From NCBI GenBank assembly GCA_964526075.1, contig CAZGIA010000004.1, positions 1 to 24,994 on the forward strand: DNA of 24,994 nt, written 5' to 3'. Source of the stretch: an uncultured Candidatus Saccharibacteria bacterium. GTDB taxonomy: Bacteria > Patescibacteriota > Minisyncoccia > Phycocordibacterales > Zambryskibacteraceae. Shown here in pieces: positions 1,385 through 23,269 of the stretch. A program made the position numbers and the translations under genes. Below the pieces are notes generated by a model. It did no database searches, was not told the DNA's origin, and saw only the letters and a list, made by a program, of their open reading frames with translations. Each line of letters starts with the position of its first letter. The stretch's first letter is position 1.

Positions 1385-3007
1385 ATGCATTTTCCCGATC
1401 TCCTTGAAACCCTTCTGAATTCACGTGGCATCAAACTTGAAGACAAGGAGGCTTTTCTCAAGCCGAATTATGCATATCTTCATGATCCCATGCTTCTTCC
1501 AGATATGAAGAGAGCAAGAGATCGAGTGCTTAGAGCTCTTATAAACGAAGAGCATATATTAGTTTTCTCTGATTATGATGCTGATGGTATTCCTGGGGCT
1601 GTGATACTTTCAGATTTTTTCAAAAGGATAGGATACAAAAATTATTCCTTTTATATTCCACATCGGCATGATGAGGGTTATGGTCTCAATTTAGACGCTG
1701 TGAAAGAGTGTGCAGAAAGAGGAGCGAAGCTCATCATCACTGTAGATTGTGGAATCTCCGACGTTGAAGAGATTGCCTTAGCTAATTCTCTCGGTATGGA
1801 TGTCTTAGTTACAGATCATCATGAACCACATACAAAACTTCCTGAAGCTTACGCTATTGTAAATCCCAAACTTAAGAAGAGTACGTATCCTTTTGATGGT
1901 CTTTGTGGTTCGGCTGTAGTGTATAAATTAGTTCAGGCTATCTATGCTAAGAAGGATTTTGGGCAGAAATCAGGTATTGAAAAGTGGTCACTTGATATGG
2001 TTGGTATTGCTACACTTTCTGATATGGTTCCTCTAGTGGGAGAAAATAGAATTTTAGCGTATTTTGGATTAGAGGTTCTTAGAAAGTCACCTCGTCCAGG
2101 ATTAACGGCGCTCTTTAACAAGTTGAATCTTGGTAGACGAAATATATCTGAAGATGATGTCACTTTCTCGATTACCCCTCGTATTAACGCCGCTTCACGT
2201 ATGGGTATTCCGGAAGACGCCTTCAAATTACTTTCAACAGATGATCCGGTAGAAGCGATGAGATTGGTGGAACATTTAGAAAAGATTAATGCAGAGCGAA
2301 AAGGTCTTGTGGCTAGTATGGTAAAAGAAGCTAAGACACATTTGAAGAAACGGGAGTCAATTCCTGCGGTGATTGTGATAGGGAATCCGGAATGGAAGCC
2401 GAGTCTGTCAGGCTTGGTTTGTAATAGCTTAGTGGAAGAATATGAGCGACCAGTATTTTGTTGGGGAAGGGATGGCGATGGAATACTTAAAGGTTCCTGC
2501 CGTTCGTATAATGGCTACGATCTTCATGCACTTATGACACTTACTCAAGAGGCCTTCATGGAGTTTGGTGGGCATAAGGGTGCGGGAGGATTCTCAGTCA
2601 CACTTGAGCAAGTCAGTGTGCTAGAAGAAAAACTTTCACAATCTTTGCTCCACTTGGAGGTTGAACCTCCAAGTGGGGATGAGTGCATACCTCTTGTACT
2701 TTCAGATATTGGTGAAGGTCTCTGGCAAATACTTTCTCAATTTGCTCCTTTTGGTATGGGTAATGAAAAGCCGATTTTTAAAATAAAGAATGCTTCAATT
2801 CAATCAGTAAAACAGTTTGGCAAAACTAAGGAACATTTGGAATTAACCCTCTCCTCGAATTTGAAGGCAATTTCTTTCTTCGCATCACCTAGCAGCTATA
2901 ACCTAGCCCCTAGCCCCTGTTTGTGTACCCTCCATGCCCACCTTGAAAAGTCTTATTTTAGAAATAGACCTGAATTACGTCTTAGAATTGTTAATATAGA
3001 AGTATGA
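1385..3007 (+). CDS. recJ: Single-stranded DNA-specific exonuclease RecJ
   Basis: DHH-family motifs SDYDADG, ITVDCG, VTDHH, PRINAASRM and DHHA1 GGHKGAGG. Confidence 0.95.
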   Translation: MHFPDLLETLLNSRGIKLEDKEAFLKPNYAYLHDPMLLPDMKRARDRVLRALINEEHILVFSDYDADGIPGAVILSDFFKRIGYKNYSFYIPHRHDEGYGLNLDAVKECAERGAKLIITVDCGISDVEEIALANSLGMDVLVTDHHEPHTKLPEAYAIVNPKLKKSTYPFDGLCGSAVVYKLVQAIYAKKDFGQKSGIEKWSLDMVGIATLSDMVPLVGENRILAYFGLEVLRKSPRPGLTALFNKLNLGRRNISEDDVTFSITPRINAASRMGIPEDAFKLLSTDDPVEAMRLVEHLEKINAERKGLVASMVKEAKTHLKKRESIPAVIVIGNPEWKPSLSGLVCNSLVEEYERPVFCWGRDGDGILKGSCRSYNGYDLHALMTLTQEAFMEFGGHKGAGGFSVTLEQVSVLEEKLSQSLLHLEVEPPSGDECIPLVLSDIGEGLWQILSQFAPFGMGNEKPIFKIKNASIQSVKQFGKTKEHLELTLSSNLKAISFFASPSSYNLAPSPCLCTLHAHLEKSYFRNRPELRLRIVNIEV

Positions 3008-3050
3008 CCCATTCGATTGCACTCAGGGTCATAGTGAGTAATATCGAACT

Positions 3051-3527
3051 ATGATAAAAATTTATACAGATGGTTCATCAAGAGGAAACCCTGGTCCGGG
3101 AGGCTGGGGGGCTATTGTCATGGACGGCATTCGTACAATTGAGTTGGGTGGTAGGGAAGATCACACCACCAACAATCGCATGGAACTTTCAGCTGCTATA
3201 AAAGCTTTGGAATTTGTATCCAAACTGTCTGCTGACAACTGTGTACTGTTTACTGATTCTGAGTATGTCATGAAGGGGATTACAGAATGGATTAAGGGTT
3301 GGCAATTGCGTGGTTGGAGAACAACAGCTAAGAAACCGGTTTTGAATCAAGATCTCTGGCAAGCGTTGGTTCTTGCTTCAGACGAGAAGAAAATTGAGTG
3401 GAAGTATGTGGCCGGACATTCGGGGCATGAATATAATGAACGTTGCGATGAGATTGCCACTTCTTTTGCCGATGATCTCAATATCACTCTCTATAATGGA
3501 GCAAGTTCAGATTACAAACTTTCTTAA
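3051..3527 (+). CDS. rnhA: Ribonuclease HI
   Basis: IYTDGSSRGNPGPGGWG, TTNNRMEL, TDSEYV, GHSGHEYNERCD. Confidence 0.96.
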   Translation: MIKIYTDGSSRGNPGPGGWGAIVMDGIRTIELGGREDHTTNNRMELSAAIKALEFVSKLSADNCVLFTDSEYVMKGITEWIKGWQLRGWRTTAKKPVLNQDLWQALVLASDEKKIEWKYVAGHSGHEYNERCDEIATSFADDLNITLYNGASSDYKLS

Positions 3528-4899
3528 TCCAGTTTTACTGTTTATCCTTAGTTTTGTAGGAGGCGTCTTTGTCTCTTCATTCTTTTTTCTACCACCACTA
3601 ATTTTCCTTTTGATACTCTTTGTTGCTGTAGCGATTACTGTTGTTGAAAAAGTTTGGTATGGGAAAGTCGGATCCGAAGTCCTGTTACTGGTATTGTTAT
3701 TAATTGCTTTTTCTCTTGGTTCTTTGCGTTATGCTGTCAAGGATTTTCATGAACTTCAGTTACCGACAGAGACTGGAGTGGTGGTGAGTGAACCAGAAGA
3801 CAAAGATAATGTTAGAAGATTTGTTTTCCTTGCTGATAATAACGAGAAAGTGTTAGTTTCTGCTCCTCTCTACCATCAAGTACAATACGGTGACAAGGTG
3901 AAAGTGTCTGGGAAATTTGAAAAACCCGGTTTAATCGAATCTGAAGATAGTAGTCGTCCGTTTGATTATGGAAAGTATCTAGCTAAGGATGATATTTATT
4001 ACACTTTGAGCTTTGCCAATGTTTTAGTACTTTCAAGCGGGCATGGCAATCCGATAAAAGCCACCCTTTTTAAGATTAAGAGAAATTTTGTTGAGCAGGC
4101 TAAAACTATTTTGGCTGAACCATATGCTAGCCTACTTATGGGTCTTGTGGTCGCAGGACGGGATGCCTTACCTGCAAATATTCTTGAGGAGTTTCGTCGG
4201 GCTGGAGTGATTCATATTGTAGTTCTTTCAGGATTCAATATCACACTTATTGCTGACTTTCTCAGGAAACTTTTTCAGAATTTTTTCCTACGTTTGGGTT
4301 GGGCTCGCTTTCAGCATGCTCCAGCTTTTGCTTCGATTGTGGGTGTGACCTTGTTTGTCATTATGACTGGTGGAGAAGCTACTGTAGTAAGAGCAGCCCT
4401 CATGGCTTTTACCGTCATTGTGGCAGGTCTGTTTGGTCGAAATTATTCTGCTCCACGGGCACTTCTTATGGCTGGTTTTCTAATGCTATTACAAAATCCG
4501 AAGATATTAGTTTTCGATCCCTCTTTCCAGCTTTCTTTCCTTGCTACTCTTGGTCTCATTTATCTTGTGCCCTTAGTCGGACAATGGATAAAATGGGTTA
4601 CAGAGAAGTGGGAAATTAAACAAACTTTGGCTCAAACTATTGCTACTCAAATAGCTGTTCTTCCACTACTTATCTATCTAGTCGGTGATGTCTCCTTGGT
4701 TTCTTTGCCAGCCAATCTTCTCATTCTTCTTATCGTACCGTACACTATGCTGGTTGGATTTCTGGCGGTAATTATTTCGTATGTGAGTGTTGTAATTGCT
4801 TGGCCAATCACTTTGGTAACTCATCTGTTGCTATCGTGGATTCTTTTTGTCTCGCACTTCTTGGGTTCTTTGTCGTTTGCTACTGTGAAGCTTTTTTAA
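3496..4899 (+). CDS. comEC: ComEC/Rec2 competence membrane protein (no MBL domain)
   Basis: Multi-TM protein with AGVIHIVVLSGFNI, VVRAALM, SFQLSFLATLG and ANLLIL. ATG 3496 was chosen over the ORF-track start 3373 to minimise overlap with rnhA; the start is uncertain. Confidence 0.88.
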   Translation: MEQVQITNFLNPVLLFILSFVGGVFVSSFFFLPPLIFLLILFVAVAITVVEKVWYGKVGSEVLLLVLLLIAFSLGSLRYAVKDFHELQLPTETGVVVSEPEDKDNVRRFVFLADNNEKVLVSAPLYHQVQYGDKVKVSGKFEKPGLIESEDSSRPFDYGKYLAKDDIYYTLSFANVLVLSSGHGNPIKATLFKIKRNFVEQAKTILAEPYASLLMGLVVAGRDALPANILEEFRRAGVIHIVVLSGFNITLIADFLRKLFQNFFLRLGWARFQHAPAFASIVGVTLFVIMTGGEATVVRAALMAFTVIVAGLFGRNYSAPRALLMAGFLMLLQNPKILVFDPSFQLSFLATLGLIYLVPLVGQWIKWVTEKWEIKQTLAQTIATQIAVLPLLIYLVGDVSLVSLPANLLILLIVPYTMLVGFLAVIISYVSVVIAWPITLVTHLLLSWILFVSHFLGSLSFATVKLF

Positions 4900-5401
4900 A
4901 ATTCTCTTCGATTTTCTGCCAATTGAGATTGGCGAAAAAGTCTTCAATGTATTGTTTCTTGCCGGATGGTTGGTAGTCGGCGACGTAGGAGTGTTCCCAC
5001 ATATCGAGAGCGAGGATGGGGACGCATTGGGAGAGTTGGCCTAAGTGTTGTTCGTCTACCCAGCTTTGGATGAGTTGCTTAGAAATAGGATCGTAGTAAA
5101 GCATAGCCCAACCCACACCTCTAGTTAGTGCCAATGTTTTAAATTTCTCCCAATCGACTTCTCTGAGAGGACCACTTGGGGTGAGCGGAGTCGAACCACC
5201 TTCAAGAGACTTGAAATAAACTTCGTGATTCCTCATGCCGTTCCACTCGAAGGGGAAACGACGGTCGTATCTTTCCTGAGCCAAGAGTTCATTGGTGTTC
5301 TTCACATATCCAGCATAAAGCTTCAAGTGTTCCTCAATAGTCTTGTCGCTAATACCCTTGAGCTTAGGTATATTGAATGTATATTCTTCAAATGTTTTCA
5401 T
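4880..5401 (-). CDS. Fe/Mn superoxide dismutase family protein (compact)
   Basis: Metal-ligand motifs EEHLKLYAGYV, NHEVYF and LDMWEHSY. Confidence 0.88.
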   Translation of the reverse strand: MKTFEEYTFNIPKLKGISDKTIEEHLKLYAGYVKNTNELLAQERYDRRFPFEWNGMRNHEVYFKSLEGGSTPLTPSGPLREVDWEKFKTLALTRGVGWAMLYYDPISKQLIQSWVDEQHLGQLSQCVPILALDMWEHSYVADYQPSGKKQYIEDFFANLNWQKIEENFKKASQ

Positions 5402-6273
5402 ATCGTAATTATATAGGAAAGTTTATATTTAAAAAGCATTGGCGAGAAGTAATTTTGGCTACTTTGCTTCTTAGTAACATTGTCGTTTGGATTTTATTGT
5501 TTCAACATCAGTCAGAGAAACTCAAAGTTTCATTTCTAGATGTTGGCCAAGGTGATGCCATCTTAATTCAAACTCCAAACAAGTATCAAGTTTTGATAGA
5601 TGGGGGCAAGAATCGCAGAGTTGTTTCAGAATTGGGGAAACTTTTACCTTTCGGTGATCGATCAATAGATGTGGTAGTTGCTACTCATCCAGATGCAGAT
5701 CATATTGGCGGACTCTTGGAAGTAGTTGCTCGTTATGACATTGGATTATATCTTGAGCCTGGAGTTGAGAGTAAAAATTCTCTTGGTGAGGAACTTAATA
5801 TCAGATTGAATAATAATAAGGTTCAGAGGCTTCTTGCAAGAAGAGGACAGATTATTAATTTTGGCGATGGGGTGAAACTCTTCATCCTTTTCCCAAACCA
5901 AGATGTTTCAAAATGGGATACTAATGAAGCTTCTGTTGTGGCTAAATTGGTTTATGGCAGTCAATCCTTTCTTTTCACTGGTGATTCTCCAATCAAAACA
6001 GAAAATATTTTATTTAAGCTTAATTCAGAAATTCTTGATGTTGATGTTTTGAAAGTAGGTCATCATGGCTCACGTACTTCTACCTCACTTTCTTATGCTC
6101 AGAGTGTTTCTCCTCTTTTTGCAATTATTTCTGCCGGAAAAAATAACTCCTATGGTCATCCGCATCAGGAGGTTTTAAACATTTTACAAAAAGTGGGAGC
6201 AGAAATTCTAAGTACCGCTGAAAAGGGCGCAATCACTTTTGAAACAGATGGACAAGTTCTCAATTTAAAATAA
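5377..6273 (+). CDS. ComEC-type metallo-beta-lactamase fold hydrolase with N-terminal TM helix
   Basis: FLDVGQGDA, THPDADHIGG, LFTGD, KVGHHGS and YGHP. The start is uncertain (5377, 5392 or later) because it overlaps the divergent SOD start. Confidence 0.88.
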   Translation: MYILQMFSYRNYIGKFIFKKHWREVILATLLLSNIVVWILLFQHQSEKLKVSFLDVGQGDAILIQTPNKYQVLIDGGKNRRVVSELGKLLPFGDRSIDVVVATHPDADHIGGLLEVVARYDIGLYLEPGVESKNSLGEELNIRLNNNKVQRLLARRGQIINFGDGVKLFILFPNQDVSKWDTNEASVVAKLVYGSQSFLFTGDSPIKTENILFKLNSEILDVDVLKVGHHGSRTSTSLSYAQSVSPLFAIISAGKNNSYGHPHQEVLNILQKVGAEILSTAEKGAITFETDGQVLNLK

Positions 6274-6305
6274 TAAATAATAGATATTTGTATGCTTTGT
6301 GAAAA

Positions 6306-6343
6306 ATACGTTATAATGTCACTATCGTGAGTCAATAACGTAT
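6306..6343. repeat. 38-bp imperfect palindrome, copy 1 (overlaps -10 TATAAT 6312-6317 and ATG 6342)
   Basis: ATACGTTAT-AATG-TCAC-TATC-GTGA-GTCA-ATAACGTAT, with 9-bp perfect outer arms. Confidence 0.85.
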
Positions 6344-6908
6344 GGGTAAATTAGAAATAAGTAGTAGCAAAAAGACCAGAAATAACAATTTACAAAAATT
6401 GATTCTTGAGACCGTTTCTCTGGCAGGATTCATGAGTATTGCTCTCGTAGCACCGAATGTCCTGAAGTCAATGAATAAACTTGGTTTAATTCCTAATTTC
6501 AGACAGGAGGAATATATTGCGTCATCTGCCAGTAAATTAGCTAAGCGTGGCTTGCTTGTTTTCGATGGTAGGAAATATTGTTTAACTGCTACTGGTGAGA
6601 GCTTATTGCGTCGTTGGCAACTAAGTGATTTTAAAATTGAAAAGCCAAAAAGGTGGGATCGAAAGTGGCGCGTAATTATCTTTGATATTCCAGAGAAGAA
6701 AAGAAAGAGTCGCGATCAGATCAGAACCTTATTTAAATTAGCGGGATTCTATCTGTTGCAGGATAGCGTCTGGGTCTACCCGTATGAGTGTGAAGATATT
6801 CTTACCCTTCTTAAATCTGATTTAGGAGTAGGAAAGAATGTTCTCTATCTTATTGTCGATGAATTGGAAAATGATAAATATCTACGAGCATCATTTGGTC
6901 TTAAATAA
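6342..6908 (+). CDS. PaaX-like protein: winged-helix plus Cas2-like ferredoxin-fold domain
   Basis: wHTH-like SKLAKRGLLVFDGRKYCLTATG followed by WDRKWRVIIFDIPEKKRKSRDQIRTLFKLAGFYLLQDSVWVYPY, typical of the PaaX central/Cas2-like domain. Confidence 0.8.
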   Translation: MGKLEISSSKKTRNNNLQKLILETVSLAGFMSIALVAPNVLKSMNKLGLIPNFRQEEYIASSASKLAKRGLLVFDGRKYCLTATGESLLRRWQLSDFKIEKPKRWDRKWRVIIFDIPEKKRKSRDQIRTLFKLAGFYLLQDSVWVYPYECEDILTLLKSDLGVGKNVLYLIVDELENDKYLRASFGLK

Positions 6909-6922
6909 AAGTTTAATTATCT

Positions 6923-6960
6923 ATACGTTACTTACTCACGATCGTAAGATAGTAACGTAT
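6923..6960. repeat. 38-bp imperfect palindrome, copy 2 (15 nt after the stop codon)
   Basis: ATACGTTAC-TTAC-TCAC-GATC-GTAA-GATA-GTAACGTAT; 28/38 identical to copy 1 without gaps. Arms extend to 11 bp (6922-6932 / 6951-6961). Confidence 0.85.
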
Positions 6961-7003
6961 AATAAGACTGTCACGTCGAGAAGTAAATTTGTAAATAGAG
7001 TAT

Positions 7004-7246
7004 TTAAATCACTCCTGCTTTCTTGAGGACGCTGTGGGCACCATTTTTGGCAATAGTTTTGATAGCTTTAGTGGAGAGGGTGAGAGTGATAGTTTTCTTG
7101 AGTTCAGGTATATAGATACGCTTTCTTTGGAGATTGGGGTATTTCCTAACCATTCCCGTAGGATTAAATTGGGTAGCACGAGTTCGGTTGGAGTAACCTC
7201 CACCCATTTTTGAGCCCTTTTTAGTAATAATACATATCTTAGTCAT
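7004..7246 (-). CDS. rpmB: 50S ribosomal protein L28
   Basis: MTKICIITKK..GGGYSNRTRA..RKYPNLQRKRIYIPE..LSTKAIKTI. Confidence 0.88.
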   Translation of the reverse strand: MTKICIITKKGSKMGGGYSNRTRATQFNPTGMVRKYPNLQRKRIYIPELKKTITLTLSTKAIKTIAKNGAHSVLKKAGVI

Positions 7247-7266
7247 AGTTGCGATATACTAGCATC

Positions 7267-7872: not shown

Positions 7873-7875
7873 TCA

Positions 7876-8120: not shown

Positions 8121-8534
8121 ATGTCTACTATCAATCAACTCGTAAAGAGAAAAAGGGGAAAACTTAAGCGTAAGACCAAGGCGGTCGCTTTGACGCGGGG
8201 ATTCAATACTCTTAAAAATCGTCCAACCTTCTTCAACTCTCCCTTTAAACGTGGCGTAGCCACTAAGGTGACTACCAAGACTCCCAAGAAACCGAACTCC
8301 GCTATTCGTAAGATTGCTCGTGTACGTCTGACCAATGGTCTTGAAGTGACTGCTTATATTCCTGGTATTGGTCACAACCTTCAAGAACACTCAGTGGTGC
8401 TTCTTCGTGGTGGTCGTGTCAAAGACGTTGGTCTTCGTTACACTATTGTTCGTGGTGTGCTTGATGCTACTGGTGTGGAGACTCGTCGCCAGACACGTTC
8501 CCAGTATGGTGCTAAGAAGCCTAAAGGGAAATAA
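8121..8534 (+). CDS. rpsL: 30S ribosomal protein S12
   Basis: [42 protein letters not shown]. Start is ATG 8121 with GGAGG SD; the ORF-track extension to 7896 is spurious. Confidence 0.98.
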
Positions 8535-8563
8535 ACAATTTCCAATAAACAATAAACAAGCAA

Positions 8564-9122: not shown

Positions 9123-9181
9123 CGTTTCCCCAAATTAAACATTTAAATATTGGAAAATTTAAATGGTGTTACCATTAATCT

Positions 9182-9661
9182 ATGGCAACAGTGCAAAGAT
9201 TTGAGGACTTGATGTGTTGGCAGAAGGCGAGAGAACTCACTCGCGAGGTGTATAAAAGTTTTAATACCTGCCGAGACCGAGGGTTTACTGACCAGATCCA
9301 ACGAGCGAGTGTTTCGGTTATGAGTAATATTTCCGAAGGATTTGAGAGTGGGACGCGAGAAATGTTTGTAAATTATCTCTATATTGCCAAGGGTTCTGCT
9401 GGGGAAGTTCGCGCACAACTTTATGCCGCATATGATATTGGCTATTTAAATATTGAAACATTTAAATATTTAAAGAATAAAGCGGAAGAATGTTCCAAAT
9501 TGCTAAACAGTTTTATCAAAGCGGTCAAAAGTTCACCGAATAGTGGTCTGCAGAGGAAAAAGGAGCTGACTAAACAAGAACAGGAGGCCGAAGCCTTCTC
9601 CACCTACGCCCAAAGCGAATTAGCCAAAGTTCACCCCAATATTTACGGTAAGAAATCTTAA
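9182..9661 (+). CDS. Four-helix-bundle protein (TIGR02436 / 23S rRNA-IVS protein family, Avd-like fold)
   Basis: FEDLMCWQKAREL..DQIQRASVSVMSNISEGF..YLYIAKGSAGEVRAQLYAAYDIGYL. Confidence 0.92.
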   Translation: MATVQRFEDLMCWQKARELTREVYKSFNTCRDRGFTDQIQRASVSVMSNISEGFESGTREMFVNYLYIAKGSAGEVRAQLYAAYDIGYLNIETFKYLKNKAEECSKLLNSFIKAVKSSPNSGLQRKKELTKQEQEAEAFSTYAQSELAKVHPNIYGKKS

Positions 9662-9684
9662 ATCTTTAAATTTTCTAATTCCTA

Positions 9685-12825: not shown

Positions 12826-12924
12826 TCGACTTGACTTATGGCAGGCAAGTTTCTCGCGCGCTTTTTTAGTTTCAGGAACAACTTCGCAACTTATTAAACT
12901 TATCTAACTTATTAAACTAAATTT

Positions 12925-14474: not shown

Positions 14475-14500
14475 TTTGATTCATCACTACAAGTAGTAAC

Positions 14501-14987: not shown

Positions 14988-15686
14988 ATGGAAGCAAACA
15001 TCTATAGCTTAGAAGGAAAGAAAGCAGGTAACATTACTTTGCCAAAGAATATTTTTGGTCTGGAATGGAATGCTGATTTGGTCAAACAGGTGGCGGATTC
15101 TCTCATATCTTCGATTAGAAAGAATATTGCACATAGTAAGAATCGTGCGGAAGTGGCTGGTGGCGGCAAGAAACCATGGCAACAGAAGGGGACTGGTCGT
15201 GCGCGTCACGGTTCCATTCGTTCACCTATCTGGCGTCATGGTGGAGTCACTCATGGTCCACGTTCGGACAAGAATTTCCTTCGTGTTGTTTCGAAGAAGA
15301 TGAGGATAAAGGCGCTTTATACTATTCTCTCTAGAAAGTTTAAAGAAGGTGAAGTTCTTTTCCTCGATGCTATGACGCTTCCAGAAAATAAGACCAAGTC
15401 TGCGGTGCTTGCGCTCAATACTCTTTCCAAGGTTAAAGGTTTCAACTACGTCTTCTCTAAAAAGAAGAATGCTACCGTCATTGCTCTAGCGAAGAAAAAT
15501 AAGGTTCTTGAAAATGCTTTCTCCAACCTTGGCAATGTAGAAGTGATTGAGGCACGTAACCTAAGTCCACTTATCTTACTTAAATATAAGTATTTGATCT
15601 TCGAGAATCCTGATGTATCCTTGAAGTCTCTTCCTAAGCTTGCTACTCCCAAAGCTAGAAGCAAGAAGCTAGCAGCTAATACCTAG
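14988..15686 (+). CDS. rplD: 50S ribosomal protein L4
   Basis: KNRAEVAGGGKKPWQQKGTGRARHGSIRSPIWRHGGVTHGP. Start is 14988 (alternative 14964). Confidence 0.96.
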   Translation: MEANIYSLEGKKAGNITLPKNIFGLEWNADLVKQVADSLISSIRKNIAHSKNRAEVAGGGKKPWQQKGTGRARHGSIRSPIWRHGGVTHGPRSDKNFLRVVSKKMRIKALYTILSRKFKEGEVLFLDAMTLPENKTKSAVLALNTLSKVKGFNYVFSKKKNATVIALAKKNKVLENAFSNLGNVEVIEARNLSPLILLKYKYLIFENPDVSLKSLPKLATPKARSKKLAANT

Positions 15687-15690
15687 TCCA

Positions 15691-15984: not shown

Positions 15985-15985
15985 T

Positions 15986-16007
15986 CCTTCGACTACGCTC
16001 AGGATAA
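15986..16007 (+). repeat. REP-like dispersed element, copy B
   Basis: CCTTCGACTACGCTCAGGATAA, 1 nt after the rplW stop. Confidence 0.85.
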
Positions 16008-16022
16008 ATTTTCAAGAAATTT

Positions 16023-16862: not shown

Positions 16863-16997
16863 AAAGAATTCAATTTTTTTACCTCGCGATAATTCTCTGC
16901 TGAGAATTTCGCTTTTGAGGCCATGAGAAGTCATATTATGACTCCTCATCTTGTGAAAGGCGCGAAAATCAACCTTCTTTTTACTTGTGTAGAGCTA

Positions 16998-17026
16998 TTG
17001 ACTATTTTAAATAAAGTTTGTATAGT
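16998..17026 (+). promoter_or_regulatory. Promoter of cassette 4
   Basis: TTGACT-17-TATAGT; GAGG at 17053-17056. Confidence 0.8.
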
Positions 17027-17061
17027 AAAAATAGACGCGAATTTTAGGAATTGAGGCACAT

Positions 17062-17391
17062 ATGACGATGACAAGGGAAGAATTTCTCAACCTGGTTCAG
17101 GAGGCGGTCGAAATCGTTGATGGAGGCCAAACGGACGAGGAGGATAAAAAGAACGAGAACGATGAGCTGTGGGACGACAACGGAAAGTTGCATGGGGGCT
17201 TCTACGCCGCTTCTGAAAGGGCCGCCAGAGAAGTAGGTCTCCCAGTCACGGAAGAGAAGGGAGATCTGGTGGTCCTGGCTATCTATTGGCGGCAGGAGGA
17301 CGCTTTGTTTGGAGAAGAAGGCCCTTCTTTGAAGCTTCCAGATCTGATTCGCCATATCGATGCGGCGTGGGAGCACATGCAGAAACTCTAG
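17062..17391 (+). CDS. 109-aa acidic ORFan, cassette 4
   Basis: Has its own promoter, SD and terminator; about 26 D/E versus 11 K/R; no family recognised. Confidence 0.72.
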   Translation: MTMTREEFLNLVQEAVEIVDGGQTDEEDKKNENDELWDDNGKLHGGFYAASERAAREVGLPVTEEKGDLVVLAIYWRQEDALFGEEGPSLKLPDLIRHIDAAWEHMQKL

Positions 17392-17401
17392 TTCTTCATC
17401 T

Positions 17402-17427
17402 GGGCGGACCATCGCGGTCCGCCCTTT
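17402..17427 (+). terminator. Hairpin terminator of cassette 4
   Basis: GGGCGGACC-ATCGC-GGTCCGCCC followed by TTT. Confidence 0.75.
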
Positions 17428-17460
17428 GCATATGTAGATACAATGTATATACTTATGTAT

Positions 17461-17697
17461 ATGACTACTAAGCTGAAAAGGTGGGGCAATAGTTATGGTA
17501 TTCGCGTACCTAAGAGCGAAGCTAAAAGATTGGGTATAAAAGAAGGTAGCCCAGTTAAATTTAATATCGAGCTCGTAAAGAAAAGAAAATATACCCTAGA
17601 GGAACTTGTGGCTCAAATTAATCCCAAAAATAGACACCCACTAATTGACTGGGGGCCTGATGTGGGTAACGAAATCTTACCTGAATGGAAAGAGTAA
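17461..17697 (+). CDS. mazE: AbrB/MazE family antitoxin
   Basis: TKLKRWGNSYGIRVPK..KYTLEELVAQINP..IDWGPDVGNE. Starts at ATG 17461, 7 nt after TATACT. Confidence 0.93.
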   Translation: MTTKLKRWGNSYGIRVPKSEAKRLGIKEGSPVKFNIELVKKRKYTLEELVAQINPKNRHPLIDWGPDVGNEILPEWKE

Positions 17698-18023
17698 AAT
17701 ATATTCCTGAGCGAGGTGATATTGTGAAGTTAAATTTAGGCCCCACCAGAGGTCACGAGCAGAGCGGCTACAGGCCTTTTGTAATTTTGTCTCGCTCAAT
17801 TTTTAATATGAATGGCGGGCATACCATTGGATGTCCGATTACTTCTAGAATCAGACATGACCCATTTGAAACACTCATAAATACATCAAGTGTTAAGGGT
17901 GTGATTTTAATTGATCAGATCCGTACAATTGACTATCTTTCTCGCAAGGTTAAGTATGTCTGCAAATGTCCGCCAGAAGTTCTATATGAAGTTACATCAA
18001 AACTAGAAACCTTAATCCATTAG
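17685..18023 (+). CDS. mazF: PemK/MazF family endoribonuclease toxin
   Basis: YIPERGDIVKLNLGPTRGHEQSGYRPFVILS..CPITS..DQIRTID; overlaps the antitoxin by 13 nt. Confidence 0.94.
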   Translation: MERVKYIPERGDIVKLNLGPTRGHEQSGYRPFVILSRSIFNMNGGHTIGCPITSRIRHDPFETLINTSSVKGVILIDQIRTIDYLSRKVKYVCKCPPEVLYEVTSKLETLIH

Positions 18024-18127
18024 TTGCCGAGCTAAGAAATATTCCAACAAGTTTATTGTTTCAAGACGCAAGGTTGGGAAGAGGAAATAAGATAAGAGAT
18101 TCAATGGAATTAAGATTTTTTGGTATC

Positions 18128-18156
18128 TTGCATTTTTTTTGTAAACCTTGTAAGGT
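18128..18156 (+). promoter_or_regulatory. Promoter for rplJ-rplL
   Basis: TTGCAT-17-TAAGGT. Confidence 0.6.
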
Positions 18157-18171
18157 ATCCTTCGTAAGGTC

Positions 18172-18206
18172 AAAGATAAGAGGCAAACATAAGTCCTCTT
18201 GAGATC
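18172..18206 (+). ncRNA. Probable L10 leader (autoregulatory kink-turn mimic)
   Basis: AAAGAT-AAGAGG-caaacataagt-CCTCTT-GAGATC upstream of rplJ; AGA..stem..UAA..stem..GAG layout resembles known L10 leaders. Confidence 0.6.
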
Positions 18207-18257
18207 AGAATTCCTTCTTTCCTTATATGTATCTTTTACTAATTAATAGTAACTTTG

Positions 18258-18746
18258 ATGGCTATATCAAAGCAGAAGAAAGCAGATGTAGTTGAGAAAT
18301 TGGTGGGAGCCTTCAAGACAGCTCAATCTCTCGTCTTCGTGAACTTCAAAGGTCTGACTGTGGGCAAGACCACCAAGATGAGAGGAGAGCTTAAGAAAGA
18401 GGGCGTTTCTTATTCTGTAGCTAAAAAAACTCTCACTGACAGAGCGCTTGATGCTCAGAGCTATGTGGGTGATAAACCAGTGTTTGAAGGTGAACTTGCG
18501 ATAGCTTGGGGAGAAGATCTTCTTACTCCGGCAAGGGAGGTTTATACTTTCGTCAAGAAATTTCCCGAGAATCTTAAAATCTTAGGGGGAGTTTTCGAAG
18601 GTAGGTACATGTCCAAGGTGGAGATTGAAGAGATCGCTATGATTCCTCAGATTCCAGTCTTGCGTGGGATGTTTGTAAATATCATCAATTCTCCAATCCA
18701 GAGGTTCGTGATCGCTCTCGGCGAAATCGCTAAGACTAAAAATTAA
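18258..18746 (+). CDS. rplJ: 50S ribosomal protein L10
   Basis: MAISKQKK..FVNFKGLTV..YSVAKKTL..ILGGVFEG. Confidence 0.95.
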   Translation: MAISKQKKADVVEKLVGAFKTAQSLVFVNFKGLTVGKTTKMRGELKKEGVSYSVAKKTLTDRALDAQSYVGDKPVFEGELAIAWGEDLLTPAREVYTFVKKFPENLKILGGVFEGRYMSKVEIEEIAMIPQIPVLRGMFVNIINSPIQRFVIALGEIAKTKN

Positions 18747-18764
18747 AAATTGAAAATTAACAAT

Positions 18765-19136
18765 ATGTCAGATAAAACAGAAAAAATTATTGCAGAGGTT
18801 GAAGGTATGACAGTCCTCGAGCTCAATGTGTTGGTCAAGGCGTTCGAAGAGAAGTTCGGTGTGAGTGCCACAGCTGTCGCAGGACCCGCCTCCGCGCAAG
18901 GCTCCGGCGAGGTGATAGAAGAGAAGTCTACAGCTGATGTGGAACTTTCCTCATCAGGCGACAACAAGATTGCTGTCATTAAGGTAGTAAAGGAGGTTCT
19001 AGCTCTTGGTCTCAAGGAAGCTAAGGATCTCGTTGATGCCGCTCCATCTATGCTCAAAATTGGTATGAAGAAGGAAGAGGCAGAAGCCTTTAAGGCAACT
19101 ATTGAAACAGCAGGAGGAAAAGTTACCTTGAAGTAA
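18765..19136 (+). CDS. rplL: 50S ribosomal protein L7/L12
   Basis: [50 protein letters not shown]. Confidence 0.97.
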
Positions 19137-19266
19137 CTGTCGGGAGGGTTACCCTCGGTATATACTTGGAGGTTGAACCACTAAGTGTGATGAACCAACG
19201 GGCGCTCATAGTTATGGGTACTTTTGTCTGGTTGTAACTTATTCTTTGTCAGTTTAGAATACGGCT

Positions 19267-19890
19267 ATGTCTAAATCGGTTGCGCTTATCTTCGGAGGGG
19301 AGGGAAAGGTTAAGATTATGCGTCTTTTCATCTTTAATCCTGGAATTATTTTCACTTCATCTGAAGTTTCCAAGCGAGCCAAGGCTTCTCCTCTTGCTAC
19401 TAGACGAGAGCTTGGGGTTCTTCTTAAGGCTGGACTTATCAAGAAAGGCATCAAGGGTTATGTTCTCAATCGTTCCTATCGTTTCTTGACTGCTATAGGG
19501 AATTTCTTAATAGATGCTACTCCTCTCTCTGAAAGAGAGATAATTCGTAAGATTTCTTCAGCTGGCAATGTGAAGCTCATCCTCATAGCTGGAGTTTTTC
19601 TCCATAATTTAGATTCTAGGGTAGATATCCTTATAGTAGGGGATCATATAAAGCAAGGGAAGCTTCTCTCTGCTATTTCTTCTATTGAAGCTGAGCTTGG
19701 CAAAGAGCTTCGTTATGCAGTTTTTGAAACTCACGACTTCCAATATCGCTTGGGTATTTATGACAAGCTTATTAGAGACATTCTCGAGTCTCAGCATGAG
19801 AAAATTCTTAACAAATTGGGACTCCAAGCTCCTGCTAGTAACCCCTTAAATAAGGGAATGACTACTCCATCGGTTATCCACAGCATCTAA
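19267..19890 (+). CDS. Winged-HTH plus nucleotidyltransferase-like fold protein (hypothetical)
   Basis: N-terminal HTH-like LIFGG..KVKIMRLF..RRELGVLLKAGLI; C-terminal GVFL..DSRVDILIVGD resembles the MNT-fold GS/DxD region. Preceded by TTGTAA-17-TAGAAT-6-ATG. Confidence 0.65.
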   Translation: MSKSVALIFGGEGKVKIMRLFIFNPGIIFTSSEVSKRAKASPLATRRELGVLLKAGLIKKGIKGYVLNRSYRFLTAIGNFLIDATPLSEREIIRKISSAGNVKLILIAGVFLHNLDSRVDILIVGDHIKQGKLLSAISSIEAELGKELRYAVFETHDFQYRLGIYDKLIRDILESQHEKILNKLGLQAPASNPLNKGMTTPSVIHSI

Positions 19891-19980
19891 TTTCTCCTTT
19901 TTAGGGCTTAGATTTAGTTGTATAATTAATCCATACCCCTTTTAGAGGTAATTAATAGTTGAATATTCAGTTAAGAACAT

Positions 19981-20676
19981 ATGTTATTAAACACATGGAA
20001 TGAAGTTCTGACTCTTTCCTTCCAGAATCTCTGGGTAGGAGTGATCAACTTCGTTCCGAATCTGGTAATTGCACTCGTGATCCTCGTTCTTGGTTGGCTT
20101 ATTGGAGCCCTTTTGGGTCGCGCAGTTTGGCAAGTCATCAAGTCTCTCAAGGTTGACGAAGCTCTTCGGCGAGCGGGTCTTGAGACCTTCCTCCGTCGTG
20201 GTGGTGTAGATCTAGACTCAGGAGCCTTCTTAGGAGCTCTGGTGAAATGGTTTGTGATCGTAGTCTTCCTTGTAGCAGCTTTTGATGTCTTGGGTCTTTC
20301 CCAGGTTAATCTATTCCTTCAGGAGGTAGTTCTCGGTTATTTGCCACGAGTAATCGCAGCAGCCTTGGTGCTTCTTGTGGGAGGTGTGGTTGGTGATGTG
20401 GCTGGTCGTGTAGTCCTTACAGCCGCAAAAACTGCTGGTGTACATTCAGCACATTTTGCTTCGGCTGTGGCTAAGTGGGCGCTCTGGATTTTCGCAATCC
20501 TCGTGGCTCTCTCCCAACTCGGGATTGCTACCGCTTTCAGCCAAACTCTCTTTACTGGTCTGGTTATCGCTATCTCCTTGGCTCTTGGTCTTTCCTTCGG
20601 TCTTGGTGGTCAAGAGGCAGCTTCTCGTTACATCGAGAGATTGCGTGCTGAGATGAGTGGTCGAAACAACGGTTAA
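19981..20676 (+). CDS. MscS-associated TM-helix (CmpX-like) membrane protein
   Basis: Two repeated hydrophobic units (FVPNLVIALVILVLGWLI / YLPRVIAAALVLLVGGVV) and C-terminal ALGLSFGLGGQEAA. Confidence 0.8.
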   Translation: MLLNTWNEVLTLSFQNLWVGVINFVPNLVIALVILVLGWLIGALLGRAVWQVIKSLKVDEALRRAGLETFLRRGGVDLDSGAFLGALVKWFVIVVFLVAAFDVLGLSQVNLFLQEVVLGYLPRVIAAALVLLVGGVVGDVAGRVVLTAAKTAGVHSAHFASAVAKWALWIFAILVALSQLGIATAFSQTLFTGLVIAISLALGLSFGLGGQEAASRYIERLRAEMSGRNNG

Positions 20677-20735
20677 GTATTAGATCTTTAACCTACTCTA
20701 GGTTAGGAATTAGCTAGATAATACTTAAAGCGAGC

Positions 20736-20760
20736 AAAATCCGCCTTATGGGCGGATTTT
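20736..20760. terminator. Bidirectional intrinsic terminator
   Basis: AAAATCCGCC-TTATG-GGCGGATTTT. Confidence 0.85.
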
Positions 20761-20781
20761 GTTATATTTCTATGGATCGAT

Positions 20782-20810
20782 TTGACTTCATCCCTTGTTT
20801 TCTATACTAT
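20782..20810 (+). promoter_or_regulatory. Promoter for the rpsS-onward block
   Basis: TTGACT-17-TACTAT. Confidence 0.65.
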
Positions 20811-20856
20811 ATTTTATACAAGCGTTTCTGCGCTTTTTGTTTTCGTAACAACACAA

Positions 20857-21198
20857 ATGACACGTTCATCGATCAAAGGTCCATATGTTGACCCTCGCGT
20901 CTTGAAGAAGCTTGAGGGGAAGAAACCCGGCACTACTGGTGTTATTAAGACCTGGTCTAGAGCTTGTCAGGTGGCTCCCGAGATGGTTGGTTTTACCTTC
21001 GGAGTCCACAATGGTCGAGATCATATAGAAGTATTTATCACCGAGGACATGGTTGGACACCGCCTCGGTGAATTTTCGCTTACGAGAAAATTTCTTCGCC
21101 ATGGTGGCAAGATGCAGAAGGAGCTTGAGACCAAGCAGAAGGAGGGGGAGATTGCTGCAGCCAAGGCCGCTAAGGGCTCGGAAGCTACTAAAAAGTAA
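20857..21198 (+). CDS. rpsS: 30S ribosomal protein S19
   Basis: [30 protein letters not shown], with a C-terminal extension. Confidence 0.97.
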
Positions 21199-21223
21199 TT
21201 TTTAATTTTTAATTTAAAAACTT

Positions 21224-21604
21224 ATGAATGAAGTTAAAGCAGAATTAAAAAATTATCGACAATCACCACGCAAGGTACGCTTGGTTGCTGATATGTTGCG
21301 TGGTAAGCCGATAGAAGAGGCTCTCACTCTTCTCTCTTTTGTACCCAAGCGAGCTGCCCTACCCTTATTGAAGTTACTAGCTTCAGCAAAAGCCAATGCG
21401 GTAAGCTTGGCCATTCCTACGGAGAATTTGAGAGTTAAGTCTATAATGGTTGATTCTGGCGCCATTTTATACAGAAGGATGCCACGCAGTCGTGGTATGG
21501 CCAATCCTTTAAGAAAGCGTACCAGCCATGTCAAAGTAGTTCTGGCTGAAGGCAAACCAAAGAAAATTAAAGCTAAAAGCAAGAAGCTAGCACCTAGCAC
21601 CTAA
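21224..21604 (+). CDS. rplV: 50S ribosomal protein L22
   Basis: YRQSPRKVRLVADMLRG..RMPRSRG..KRTSHVKVVL. Confidence 0.97.
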   Translation: MNEVKAELKNYRQSPRKVRLVADMLRGKPIEEALTLLSFVPKRAALPLLKLLASAKANAVSLAIPTENLRVKSIMVDSGAILYRRMPRSRGMANPLRKRTSHVKVVLAEGKPKKIKAKSKKLAPST

Positions 21605-21608
21605 TCCT

Positions 21609-22277
21609 ATGACCCACACAGTCCATCCTTATTCCCATCGTCTAGGTATGATCCGAGATTGGAAGTCTCGTTGGTTTTCTCCTAAGGGTAAGTACCAGAT
21701 AGCTCTTAAGGGTGACATTCTTATTCGTGAGTATCTTGAGAAGAAACTTAAAGGTTTCTTTGTCGCAGATATCGAGATTGAAAGAAGTGAGAAGCAGATG
21801 CGTGTAATTCTCTCCAGTTCTCGCCCAGGCATGATCATCGGTCGTCAAGGCGATGGGGCTGAAGCTCTGAGAAGTGAACTTAGGAAACTTCTCAGTAAGA
21901 ATAATCTCCTTGATGAAAAGAAGGTGGATCTCAAGCTTGATATCAAGGAAGTCAAGAACGCCGAGGCCAATGCCGCTATTGTAGCTCAGATGGTAGTTGA
22001 AGGACTTGAGAAACGTATGACCTTCCGTCGTGTGATGAAGATGACTGTAGAGAAGGTTATGGCCAATCGTGACGTTTTAGGAGTTAAGATAGTGCTTTCT
22101 GGTATGATCACCAGCGGTATGGCTCGTACTGAGACCCTCAAGAAGGGGCGTATTCCGCTTCAAACTTTTCGAGCTGATGTGGATTACGCTTGTACTACCG
22201 CTCGTCTCACTCTAGGAGCTGTGGGTGTGAAGGTTTGGATTTACAAGGGAGATATCTTTGCTGATGCAAAAAAATAA
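21609..22277 (+). CDS. rpsC: 30S ribosomal protein S3
   Basis: VHPYSHRLG..SSRPGMIIGRQG..GRIPLQTFRADVDY..GVKVWIYKG. Confidence 0.97.
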   Translation: MTHTVHPYSHRLGMIRDWKSRWFSPKGKYQIALKGDILIREYLEKKLKGFFVADIEIERSEKQMRVILSSSRPGMIIGRQGDGAEALRSELRKLLSKNNLLDEKKVDLKLDIKEVKNAEANAAIVAQMVVEGLEKRMTFRRVMKMTVEKVMANRDVLGVKIVLSGMITSGMARTETLKKGRIPLQTFRADVDYACTTARLTLGAVGVKVWIYKGDIFADAKK

Positions 22278-22360
22278 CTAATTTCTAATTGACCTAATTA
22301 ACCTAAAATGAACTCACTTAGAACAATTAGAATAATTAGAAATTAGAATAATTTACTATT

Positions 22361-22777
22361 ATGTTTTTCCCAAAAAAAGTTAAATACAGAAAGTGGCACA
22401 CCATGAGGAAAAATCCAACCAAGGTTGGCGTAGCGTCTCGTGGTGTGACAGTGGCTTTCGGATCCTTTGGTCTCAAGGCCATGGCTCCAGCTCGTATTAA
22501 ATCGAATCAAATTGAATCAGCTCGAAAAGTACTTTCTCGTTCAATAGGTAAGACTGGTCGACTTTGGATTCGTATCTTTCCTGATATGCCTTACACTGAG
22601 AAGCCAGCGGAGGTGAAGCTTGGAAAAGGCAAAGGAGATTTGGCTGGTTATGTCGCTCCGGTACTTCCGGGTCGTATCCTTTTCGAGGTTGATGGCATTG
22701 AGGAGGCTATGGCCAGAGAGGCCTTGAGAAAGGCAGGTACTAAGCTTCCAGTTAAGACTAAAATTGTGGCCAGATAG
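22361..22777 (+). CDS. rplP: 50S ribosomal protein L16
   Basis: PKKVKYRKWH..QIESARK..WIRIFPD..GKGKG. Confidence 0.97.
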   Translation: MFFPKKVKYRKWHTMRKNPTKVGVASRGVTVAFGSFGLKAMAPARIKSNQIESARKVLSRSIGKTGRLWIRIFPDMPYTEKPAEVKLGKGKGDLAGYVAPVLPGRILFEVDGIEEAMAREALRKAGTKLPVKTKIVAR

Positions 22778-22798
22778 TTCGTAAACTCATAAAGTAAT

Positions 22799-22978
22799 AT
22801 GAAAAAGACCAATTATATCGGGAAGACAAAAGAGGATCTTGTAAAATCTCTATACGAAAAGAGAGAATCACTTCGTGCTTTCCGTTTTGGTGAAGCTGGC
22901 TCAAAAACTAGAAATGTGAAGGAAGGTATTAGTTTAAGAAAGGATATTGCCCGTATCATGACTGAACTGAATAAATAG
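22799..22978 (+). CDS. rpmC: 50S ribosomal protein L29
   Basis: 59-aa ORF missing from the track: MKKTNYIGKTKEDLVKSLYEKRESLRAFRF..LRKDIARIMTELNK, in the canonical position between rplP and rpsQ. Confidence 0.92.
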   Translation: MKKTNYIGKTKEDLVKSLYEKRESLRAFRFGEAGSKTRNVKEGISLRKDIARIMTELNK

Positions 22979-23002
22979 TTCGACAAGCTCACTACAAGTA
23001 AT

Positions 23003-23251
23003 ATGAACAAAAAACAAACAAAAGGAAAAATACTTTCTGGCATAGTCATCTCCACCAAGATGAAGGATACTATTGTGGTGAAGGTAGATCGATTTGAAAA
23101 ACATGCCAAATATGAGAAGTTCATCAAGCGCTCCAAGAAGTTCAAGGCTCATGATGCTAGCAATACTGCTACTCTTGGTGATAAGGTAGATATCGTTGAA
23201 ACTAAGCCAATTTCTAAGGACAAACACTTCAGGCTAGTCCCTAGAACCTAG
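23003..23251 (+). CDS. rpsQ: 30S ribosomal protein S17
   Basis: GIVISTKMKDTIVV..KKFKAHD..IVETKPISKDKHFRL. Confidence 0.97.
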   Translation: MNKKQTKGKILSGIVISTKMKDTIVVKVDRFEKHAKYEKFIKRSKKFKAHDASNTATLGDKVDIVETKPISKDKHFRLVPRT

Positions 23252-23269
23252 TCCCTAGCACCTACCTAA

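Follow-up and report, generated by a model that had tools for sequence, protein, structure and literature searches.

The intervening sequence (IVS) of 23S rRNA that encodes S23p in Coxiella burnetii contains a stem with tandem heptamers (GACAGAT), whose number varies by strain and at which RNase III cuts (PMC4990558). Arrays of tandem heptamers, here called heptads, also occur in the stretch of DNA analysed in this study, the window (24,994 nt, contig C4:1-24994), which belongs to the assembly G000 (462.5 kb in 45 contigs, GC content 41.6%, completeness 93%). The relatives of G000 are tiny Patescibacteria, represented by metagenome-assembled genomes (MAGs) of the Paceibacteria/Minisyncoccia type. 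We consider it probable that these arrays are arm sequences of a family of hairpin and cassette elements common in this Patescibacteria order, and that the C-terminal tails of the ribosomal proteins (r-proteins) L4, L22 and S17 are translated arms. A cassette here is a four-helix-bundle gene of the TIGR02436/PF05635 family together with the heptad arms on its two sides.

The 23S IVS of C. burnetii and Leptospira that bear an open reading frame (ORF) are similar to these cassettes, as the ORF belongs to the same TIGR02436/PF05635 family and lies in the loop of an inverted-repeat stem (PMC4990558). Moreover, one cassette of the order under study (locus L141 of genome G175) itself lies in a 23S rRNA IVS with heptad stems. 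On the other hand, the elements described here lie between protein-coding genes and not in rRNA, and the solo arms of the window have neither an ORF nor a partner arm and are translated as tails of the upstream proteins. That RNase III would cut the elements described here is suggested by analogy.

The TAACTGA repeats of Beggiatoaceae, Cyanobacteria and Bacteroidetes consist of 2-6 tandem heptamers situated a few nucleotides 5' of start codons and overlapping the upstream stop codon (MacGregor 2015, PMC4679880). As in our case, they carry stops in all three frames and are found in r-protein operons, and the downstream genes mostly lack a Shine-Dalgarno (SD) box. However, they have one fixed unit and almost no inverted pairs, and no link to four-helix-bundle genes was drawn, whereas G000 has many degenerate unit families. 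There is no TAACTGA in tandem in the G000 genome, where TAACTGA/TCAGTTA occurs at 30 single sites.

The GGGAATC and GGGGAYT heptamers of Xanthomonas and Nostoc and the cyanobacterial STRR heptamers (Rehm 2015, PMC4692102) share with our arrays the intergenic over-representation, differences in length among close relatives at a conserved location, and the occurrence of convergent (inverted) pairs, about 70 per Xanthomonas genome. Xanthomonas campestris also encodes a member of the four-helix-bundle family, XCC0516. In contrast to the arrays considered here, these repeats are G-rich, reach up to 14-26 units and were studied as G-quadruplex formers, and no link to PF05635 or to protein tails was made (PMC4692102). 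In G000, no GGGAATC, GGGGAYT or STRR units were found in tandem.

Heptad spacing is also a property of some binding sites. The omega repressor of plasmid pSM19035 binds arrays of 7-bp operators, both direct and inverted, with one protein unit per heptad, and the ring protein HutP reads three UAG triplets spaced 7 nt. Unlike these sites, the units in G000 are of many kinds, and the arrays are located in transcribed junctions and not in promoters; no HutP homologue was found in G000, and no search for omega-type proteins was made. To our knowledge, heptamer over-representation in bacteria has been known for decades without a cause, and the large PF05635/TIGR02436 family has no known role outside diversity-generating retroelements (DGRs). 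The literature searched contained no statement that PF05635/TIGR02436 genes generally sit between inverted heptad arms; this arrangement was found only for the Coxiella 23S IVS. Already known are heptamer over-representation, the TAACTGA repeats, the paired GGGAATC repeats and the Coxiella IVS. New here are the Patescibacteria case, the solo arms translated as L4, L22 and S17 tails, a pair of syntenic loci from one genus, strain variation in steps of one unit, and an array in recJ whose units change in concert at fixed length.

Placement and turnover of the heptad arrays

The window contains recJ, rnhA, the str and S10/spc ribosomal operons, and a four-helix-bundle gene between rpsG and fusA. 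All window features described below are on the forward strand. C-rich CTAG-type arrays of five units form the ends of rplD (L4) and rplV (L22). The first one (15650..15688) covers the last 11-12 rplD codons and ends 4 nt 5' of the rplW ATG (15691). Its units at 15654-15688, GCTAGAA GCAAGAA GCTAGCA GCTAATA CCTAGTC, encode ...KARSKKLAANT*. The second one (21569..21606) covers the rplV tail and stop codon and ends 4 nt 5' of the rpsC ATG (21609). Here the units at 21572-21606 are GCTAAAA GCAAGAA GCTAGCA CCTAGCA CCTAATC, encoding ...KAKSKKLAPST*. The two gene ends are identical at 37/43 nt in a single register up to the next ATG. One more CTAG array, CTAGTCC CTAGAAC CTAGTCC CTAGCAC CTACCTA (23233..23267), encodes the last residues of rpsQ (S17), contains the rpsQ stop codon (23249-23251) and reaches the rplN ATG (23270).

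Other unit types occur at the ends of rpsL, rplJ and rpsS. An AATAAAC-type array (8530..8563) spans the distance from the rpsL stop to the rpsG ATG (8564), a TAAAAAT-type array (18737..18764) includes the rplJ stop and abuts the rplL ATG (18765), and a TAATTTT array (21196..21215) begins at the rpsS stop, 5' of the rplV ATG (21224), and differs by plus or minus one unit among near-identical strains. Within recJ, an array at 2889..2920 lies in frame in a loop (SPSSYNLAPSPC), and the unit expected to give an in-frame TAG has TAT instead.

All strings quoted in an earlier, sequence-only reading of the window are present where it had placed them. Translation confirmed the near-identical L4 and L22 tails, and the heptads that it reported at the rpsQ, rpsL, rplJ and rpsS stops and in recJ lie at or near the claimed positions. 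It had also reported an ACTGTNT heptad in rnhA (3224..3258). This string exists, but its periodicity (15/21 matches at lag 7, below the array cut-off of 16/21) is weak, indistinguishable from background and may be due to chance.

Period-7 arrays are in excess in the entire G000 genome. Tandem Repeats Finder (TRF) yields 69 of them versus 9.2 in dinucleotide shuffles, so that the periodicity noted in the window is above background; the respective numbers for period 14 are 19 and 1.8. The tetranucleotide CTAG recurs at lag 7 in 25 cases, versus 1-4 cases at each of lags 5, 6, 8, 9 and 10. A lag scan with at least 17/21 self-matches produced 30 clusters at lag 7, which exceeds all other lags, 14 at lag 14, 10 at lag 9, the other period proposed for checking, and 0-4 at the remaining ones. 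The unit families include CTAGNNN, ACAATNN/ATTGTNN, AATTGAA/ATTTTCA, TCTTAAA and GTGAGAG. The most frequent copy number is 4-5 units, and no array has 6 or more.

The placement of the arrays relative to genes was analysed for 48 arrays with at least 16/21 lag-7 matches, using genes from our own crude codon-usage caller (87% coding). More than half of the set (25/48) are intergenic or straddle a gene end. A called stop codon lies inside 11/48 arrays; with random placement, the number is 1.9 and did not exceed 7 in 500 trials. Fourteen arrays have their end at most 30 nt from a start codon, with 2.2 expected, and in twelve of these the end lies between 4 nt inside the gene and 6 nt before it. 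Per kb, tandem intergenic spacers have 0.53 arrays and convergent ones 0.60, compared with 0.07 in coding sequence, and no arrays were observed in 8.9 kb of divergent spacers. The arrays thus belong to transcribed 3' ends and intercistronic junctions, and not to promoter regions.

The lengths of arrays were compared between strains by aligning assembled Logan contigs of four metagenome runs to the window; minor variants are invisible in such contigs. At position 21196, in the rpsS/rplV array, 7 nt are missing in run X1 and an additional AATTTTC is present in run X2, with few other indels over 20 kb of strain contigs. This is the only clearly polymorphic array, the CTAG arrays at rplD and rplV being unchanged in the compared contigs. 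A contig of run X4 (about 97% identity) has 7 gap letters across 23197-23758 that are not localised to the rpsQ array. The length of the tracts changes in 7-nt steps, and they are shaped by a process at the DNA level rather than by protein selection, as the sequence-only reading had suggested. G000 thus has an over-represented 7-nt unit, a non-coding bias and, clearly in one array, strain polymorphism of unit number, which are the features of heptamer simple-sequence repeats (SSRs).

Apart from the array at 21196, the only multi-base indel hot spot in the 20 kb compared is at 6993-6996, where strain contigs have a complex insertion of 6-9 nt (AGTTGT, G, AG) in a palindrome 3' of the gene at 6342-6908.

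Within the genus, one and the same junction may have an array in one species and none in another, and the load of CTAG heptads in 37 species ranges from 0 (15 species) to 63 hits. The L4 and L22 C-termini, whose comparison in relatives had been proposed, vary in both length and sequence: past the conserved cores they have from none to about 16 residues, and several of these ends are heptad arrays too, e.g. GCTAGAAGCAATAAGCTAAAAGCTAAAAGCTAG in L22 of G010 and GCTAGAACCAAGTCCCTAGCCCCTAGAACCTAGTC in L4 of G005.

Heptad arms of four-helix-bundle cassettes

The window has one intact TIGR02436/PF05635 gene (9182..9661, between rpsG and fusA), with a TIGR02436 score of 110 bits and relatives in the PDB entries 2GSC and 2RLD. 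It is flanked by a short upstream arm ATTGGAAAATTTAAA (9149..9163), complementary at 14/15 positions to the downstream arm TTTAAATTTTCTAAT (9666..9680), with an inverted-repeat score of 25.

The architecture is clearer in relatives. The first sample comprised 14 loci with 16 genes, one locus being cut by a contig end. In every complete locus, heptad arrays are found on both sides of the TIGR02436 gene, and they are inverted in all loci but one (G077, direct repeats). The upstream arm is G-rich, (TAGNNNN)n, and the downstream arm is C-rich, (NNNNCTA)n. The arm sequences vary between genomes and also between copies in one genome.

A second sample of 40 TIGR02436 genes from 25 genomes of the order was chosen blind to repeats. 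Flanking inverted-repeat scores of at least 25 were observed for 35/40 of these genes, compared with 4/118 other G000 genes and 4/240 random windows (Fisher p = 3e-25). At least 15/21 matches at lag 7 in both flanks were observed for 21/40, 1/118 and 0/240, respectively (p = 3e-14), and lag 7 is the best one in 27 of the upstream flanks and in 30 of the downstream ones. The link between the repeats and the four-helix-bundle family, tentatively drawn in the sequence-only reading, is thus a physical one, the genes lying between inverted heptad arms. The upstream arm ends 0-27 nt before the ATG of the ORF, and the downstream arm extends approximately from the ORF stop to a position 3-10 nt before the next ATG. 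The latter geometry is that of the solo arrays of the window, and the rplD, rplV and rpsQ arrays in particular, with their five units ending 3-6 nt 5' of an ATG, are arranged as the downstream arms in relatives.

The family relatives 2GSC, which is XCC0516 of X. campestris, and 2RLD have five chains per entry. About 12 of 56 cassettes are located directly 5' of one PrgI-like gene (MRFQVPQFI.VEDKIFGP..) in different families of the order, with different arms each time (downstream flanks of loci L145, L146, L149, L150, L157, L163, L166, L173, L176, L178, L188 and L194). This site is either a conserved old insertion with compensatory changes in the arms or an insertion hot spot.

The heptad pattern CTAGNNNCTAGNNNCTA was found in 42/151 genomes of the order, compared with 0-2 hits per genome for the reversed-pattern control. 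Heavily loaded genomes include G096 (86 hits), G076 (44), G039 (25) and G000 itself (24). Several of the hits are situated less than about 50 nt from TIGR02436 genes, which was the reason for examining the first 14 loci. Genes of the TIGR02436 family are present in 70/151 genomes, with 31/42 among heptad-positive and 39/109 among heptad-negative ones (odds ratio 5, p = 4.5e-5, hand tally).

In G000, paired arrays outside the window fold as long imperfect hairpins (z from -3 to -7). One of them, C4:28126-28200, just outside the window, has the arm order of a cassette. Two near-identical ACAATTT/ATTGTTT heptad hairpins with a common loop AAAAAAATTGGAATCTC (C6:1375-1470 and C6:2115-2205) lie about 650 bp apart and bracket a short stretch; in this pair the C-rich arm leads, opposite to the cassettes. 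The solo arrays of the window lack a partner arm, and they do not fold (z from -2.2 to +0.8). No TIGR02436/PF05635 ORF was found in the rplD, rplV, rpsQ, rpsL, rplJ, rpsS-end or recJ arrays, the only intact gene of the window being the one at 9182-9661. Since there is no family ORF within them, the arrays at r-protein gene ends and in recJ are classed as arm-type sequence or remnants, and not as cassettes.

Solo arrays, protein tails and the RecJ loop

The relation between a solo array and a cassette can be seen at the junction of the genes encoding a KH protein and TrmD. In G004, a genome of the same genus, the stop codon of the KH-protein gene is followed by TGGCTAGGTTCTAGTGGCTAGGGACTAGCCAGC, a 309-aa ORF, a TIGR02436 gene, TACCTAGTCCCAAGTCCCTAGAACCTAACTC and the trmD ATG. 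In G000 (contig C5, outside the window), the same stop codon is followed by AGACTAGTCCCTAGCCCCTAACCT and the ATG. The solo array of G000 aligns with the downstream arm of the G004 cassette. A similar situation is observed 5' of the PrgI-like gene, where G017 and many other families have a cassette and G000 has an ORF-less hairpin (dG -27.7, z -3.5). The 309-aa second cargo of G004 (locus L195, G004:C6, minus strand, 1442-2371) has no homologue in G000; by eye, it looked like a transglutaminase-like cysteine protease.

The units themselves are also shared. In G017, G005 and G011, the downstream cassette arms contain the sequence ..GCTAGC(A/C)CCTAGAAGCAAG(A/C)AGCTA.., including the unit GCAAGAA, and the run ..CTAGAAGCAAG(A/C)AGCTA.. 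of these arms is the run found in the rplD and rplV tails. Local alignments of G000 solo arrays with arms from the genus have scores 15-27, the null maximum being 10-13. The similarity of the L4 and L22 gene ends is thus ascribed to shared arm sequence and not to protein convergence, as the cassette arms of the genus contain the same units. It is most readily understood if both ends are copies of an arm sequence found throughout the genus, cassette arms of G005, G011 and G017 included, and not as a private event between the two genes, the alternative named in the sequence-only reading; ectopic conversion between arrays may have contributed to the likeness.

The reading frames explain why such sequences become protein tails. 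As 7 mod 3 = 1 and CTAG is palindromic, three CTAG units provide TAG in all six frames. An ORF entering an arm is thus terminated after no more than about 21 nt, except where the in-frame unit is mutated. The argument about stops in every frame was also put forward by MacGregor for the TAACTGA repeats (PMC4679880). Mutated in-frame units are indeed seen: unit 2 of both the rplD and rplV arrays has CAAG (AAG, Lys), and recJ has TAT (Tyr). Hence, the C-terminal tails of L4, L22 and S17 would be translated arm sequence, and this would be the reason why two unrelated proteins have KA(R/K)SKKLA in common. The sequence-only reading had proposed deposition of heptamers at stop-codon junctions. The enrichment at gene ends stands, but the stop codon is not the target: arrays coincide with stops because they themselves carry TAG or TAA in every frame, and the upstream ORFs end inside them.

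The loop encoded by the recJ array has the same length in all 14 RecJ proteins of the genus that were compared, and the array was therefore rejected as a private insertion. The mean identity of the loop DNA at lag 7 is 0.53; other lags give 0.23-0.35, and the flanks have 0.27. The unit type varies by species group (CCTAGCN, CTTACTN, CCTAAAT, AAGCTNN), and the loop peptide changes because of that. One of these types, CTTACTN/AGTAAGN, is also the arm type of cassettes in G016, G006 and G014. Such change of recJ units in concert at fixed length may point to conversion-like overwriting.

Several other features of the genome were observed. In the window, a block of about 3.9 kb (16863-20781) interrupts the S10 operon, with rplB on one side and rpsS on the other; it comprises an acidic ORF, a pair of AbrB/MazE-like and MazF/PemK-like genes (17443-18023), rplJ-rplL, a 207-aa ORF and a membrane protein; the rplW-rplV spacing of 4-8 kb in genus relatives suggests similar insertions. 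There is a second periodicity class of 9 nt (CTAATTAAC, TTAGAATAA, AACTTATTA), observed at 22285-22353 and 12888-12918 of the window and at C3:26440-26480 and C29:1975-2105 elsewhere in G000. Period-9 arrays are over-represented (48 by TRF versus 9 in shuffles). The 9-nt repeats form the arms of the ORF-less hairpin 5' of the PrgI-like gene, and also precede a truncated TIGR02436 copy on contig C3.

Possible origin of the arrays

The following scheme is derived from what was observed, namely the excess of the arrays and their placement, the polymorphism in unit steps, the architecture of the cassettes of relatives, the synteny and the shared units. In a full element between two genes, the upstream stop would be followed directly by the G-rich arm (TAGNNNN)n with about 4-5 units. 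A loop or a cargo, typically an Avd-like four-helix-bundle gene (TIGR02436/PF05635), would come next, and the complementary arm, which is C-rich, (NNNNCTA)n, would close the element at a distance of 3-10 nt from the following ATG. Most copies in G000 would be reduced to ORF-less hairpins or to a single C-rich arm, as at rplD|rplW, rplV|rpsC, rpsQ|rplN and KH|trmD. The turnover of the arrays is fast and is likely to proceed by slipped-strand mispairing and by recombination at repeated cores, of which the palindromic CTAG is an example; we infer the direction of change, loss or gain of cargo, at each junction. As the Coxiella S23p IVS is the one studied analogue, a function of an RNA stem may be proposed. 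By this analogy, the paired arms would form a stem cut by RNase III, as in the 23S rRNA IVS, and the cargo could be excised or insulated from the polycistronic transcript. The rnc gene encoding RNase III is present in G000. Solo arms would be remnants or landing sites to which we ascribe no function of their own, at most co-option as G-poor unstructured leaders, and the protein tails would be by-products.

A number of observations weigh against this interpretation. At KH-protein|trmD, a solo array is homologous to the cassette arm that a relative has there, but such homology is not seen for the three r-protein junctions. No cassette or paired hairpin was found at the latter in the relatives examined, in which the arrays are solo as well. 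Comparison (tblastn) of 41 family proteins with 136 r-protein loci produced one TIGR02436 gene (L057), unmapped relative to the three junctions, and the idea of cassettes inside the S10/spc operon of relatives was rejected. The cassette of the window itself has arms of 15 nt only, with a period nearer 8 than 7. Several G000 hairpins of the ACAAT type (on contigs C6, C13, C1 and C7) have the C-rich arm first, in reverse to the cassette order. The concentration of mismatches by unit column, which was considered as a sign of a binding site with a core and a variable spacer, is weak (z = 2.5, contaminated by array edges). Within the genus, the co-occurrence of heptads and TIGR02436 is not significant (17/22 versus 8/15, p = 0.16). 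G000 has at least 48 arrays but one intact and one truncated TIGR02436 gene. The correlation of repeat abundance with TIGR02436 copy number, suggested as a check by the sequence-only reading, is not visible: G140 has 9 genes and no CTAG hits, and G096 has 2 genes and 86 hits. A dose relation was rejected for this reason; what is associated is only the presence of the two and their physical adjacency.

The alternatives should be considered together with these points. One possibility is that the arrays are ordinary SSRs, in which slippage favours 7-nt units that are kept where constraint is weak, in short spacers and disordered tails, with no element ancestry. The difference of one unit between strains, the higher-order duplications of 14 nt, the many unrelated unit types and the absence of cassettes at the r-protein junctions of relatives all agree with this explanation, and both heptamer over-representation and the idea of polymerase slippage have been published (PMC4692102). 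However, slippage explains neither the complementary inverted pairs nor the specific tie to one gene family (35/40 versus 4/118). It also leaves without explanation the limit of fewer than 6 units with a mode of 4-5, the odd unit GCAAGAA, which is identical at loci that are not linked and recurs in the cassette arms of other species, and the recJ array of fixed length with units changing together. We thus find this origin quite improbable. The limit on unit number would be natural if the arrays were multimeric sites at which each subunit of an oligomeric nucleic-acid-binding protein binds one unit. The reader could be the pentameric four-helix-bundle protein, given that 2GSC and 2RLD have five chains each and that the gene always adjoins its own arms. 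It could also be a HutP-like reader of UAG-N4-UAG-N4-UAG, as the (C)UAG-N3/4 spacing is the geometry of HutP sites. However, arm units differ between cassettes even in one genome (G129, G011), so that specific recognition would require co-varying proteins, and G000 has many arrays with a single intact gene. The HutP-like candidate was rejected, as PF09021 was not found in G000 or in the heavily loaded genomes G096, G076, G039 and G148, although the CTAG arrays have the geometry of the motif. The binding-site explanation is thus possible, with more doubt than confidence attached to it.

Selection may, on the other hand, act on the position of the arrays, if C-rich, G-poor sequences are unstructured translation leaders of internal cistrons in a host that does not rely on SD boxes. 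This would be compatible with an origin from elements followed by co-option. The twelve arrays that end close to a start codon, the lack of folding in the solo arrays and the approximately 3-fold enrichment of ACCTA/CCTAA and ACAAT 5' of starts speak for such a role. The TAACTGA repeats, for which a similar role was proposed in Beggiatoaceae, provide a precedent with the same geometry, r-protein operons included (PMC4679880). Canonical SD boxes are rare in G000 (GGAGG 5' of 10/515 starts), and the 16S rRNA 3' tail of four genus relatives has no CCUCC. However, many relatives have overlapping genes or stop-start spacing of 1-5 nt at the same junctions and no array, and convergent spacers, where there is no downstream start, are equally dense in arrays. 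The unit sequences are diverse, and complementarity to the 16S tail is not enriched 5' of starts. Selection for leaders therefore seems an unlikely cause of the arrays.

Some observations on translation starts were made along with this analysis. The 16S rRNA was not assembled in G000, and the tail was taken from the genus relatives G012, G021, G046 and G020, where helix 45 is followed by GGAGTAATTCAATT(T/C)GAAAAT instead of GGATCACCTCCTTA, with no CCUCC (L101:3055-3115, L102:1418-1480, L103:3954-4010, L106:805-865); conservation of the tail extends over about 20 nt, beyond which the sequences diverge. Some AT-rich heptads resemble the complement of this tail. An alternative SD pairing was rejected: tail-complementary 6-mers occur in 91 windows 5' of starts, and the numbers obtained after shuffling the windows or the tail are 82 +/- 8 and 81 +/- 22, respectively. 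G000 has a 5-6-fold enrichment of TATAAT-like boxes no farther than 22 nt from the ATG, which suggests leaderless mRNAs. A recurrent r-protein spacer, TAGTTCGAC..GCTCACTA(C/T)AAGTAAT-ATG, is found at 14475-14500, 15985-16022, 22778-22798, 22979-23002 and 24627-24653 of the window, along with similar spacers; from its sequence, it looks like an internal -35/-10 promoter set for a leaderless start. Junctions without this promoter-like spacer tend to have heptad arrays instead.

With the arrays still read as arms of hairpin and cassette elements, a further step may be considered. Avd is a pentamer, and the mode of 4-5 units together with five-chain crystal entries fits one unit per pentamer subunit, which is not proof. 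A pentameric protein would then read about five heptads. It is tentatively conceivable, though on balance we doubt it, that the heptad arrays and the Avd-like pentameric genes constitute one self-propagating or self-maintaining system, the protein reading about five heptads on paired arms of DNA or RNA. Cassettes would come to and go from intercistronic junctions by recombination at the cores, and arms left behind, or overwritten by ectopic conversion, would continually rewrite C-termini and loops of the essential proteins L4, L22, S17 and RecJ.

The physical linkage of heptamer repeats to PF05635/TIGR02436 genes in more than 25 Patescibacteria genomes joins two old puzzles, and the synteny within one genus provides a case where a lone array can be an arm of a cassette. 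In this way non-coding repeat DNA would give rise to lineage-specific tails on universal ribosomal proteins, and the loop of RecJ would be rewritten at fixed length. For annotation, variable C-termini and false short ORFs are to be expected at heptad junctions. The self-propagating system, if it exists, would explain the excess of heptamers in bacteria that has long been without explanation, and would give a role to a large orphan protein family.

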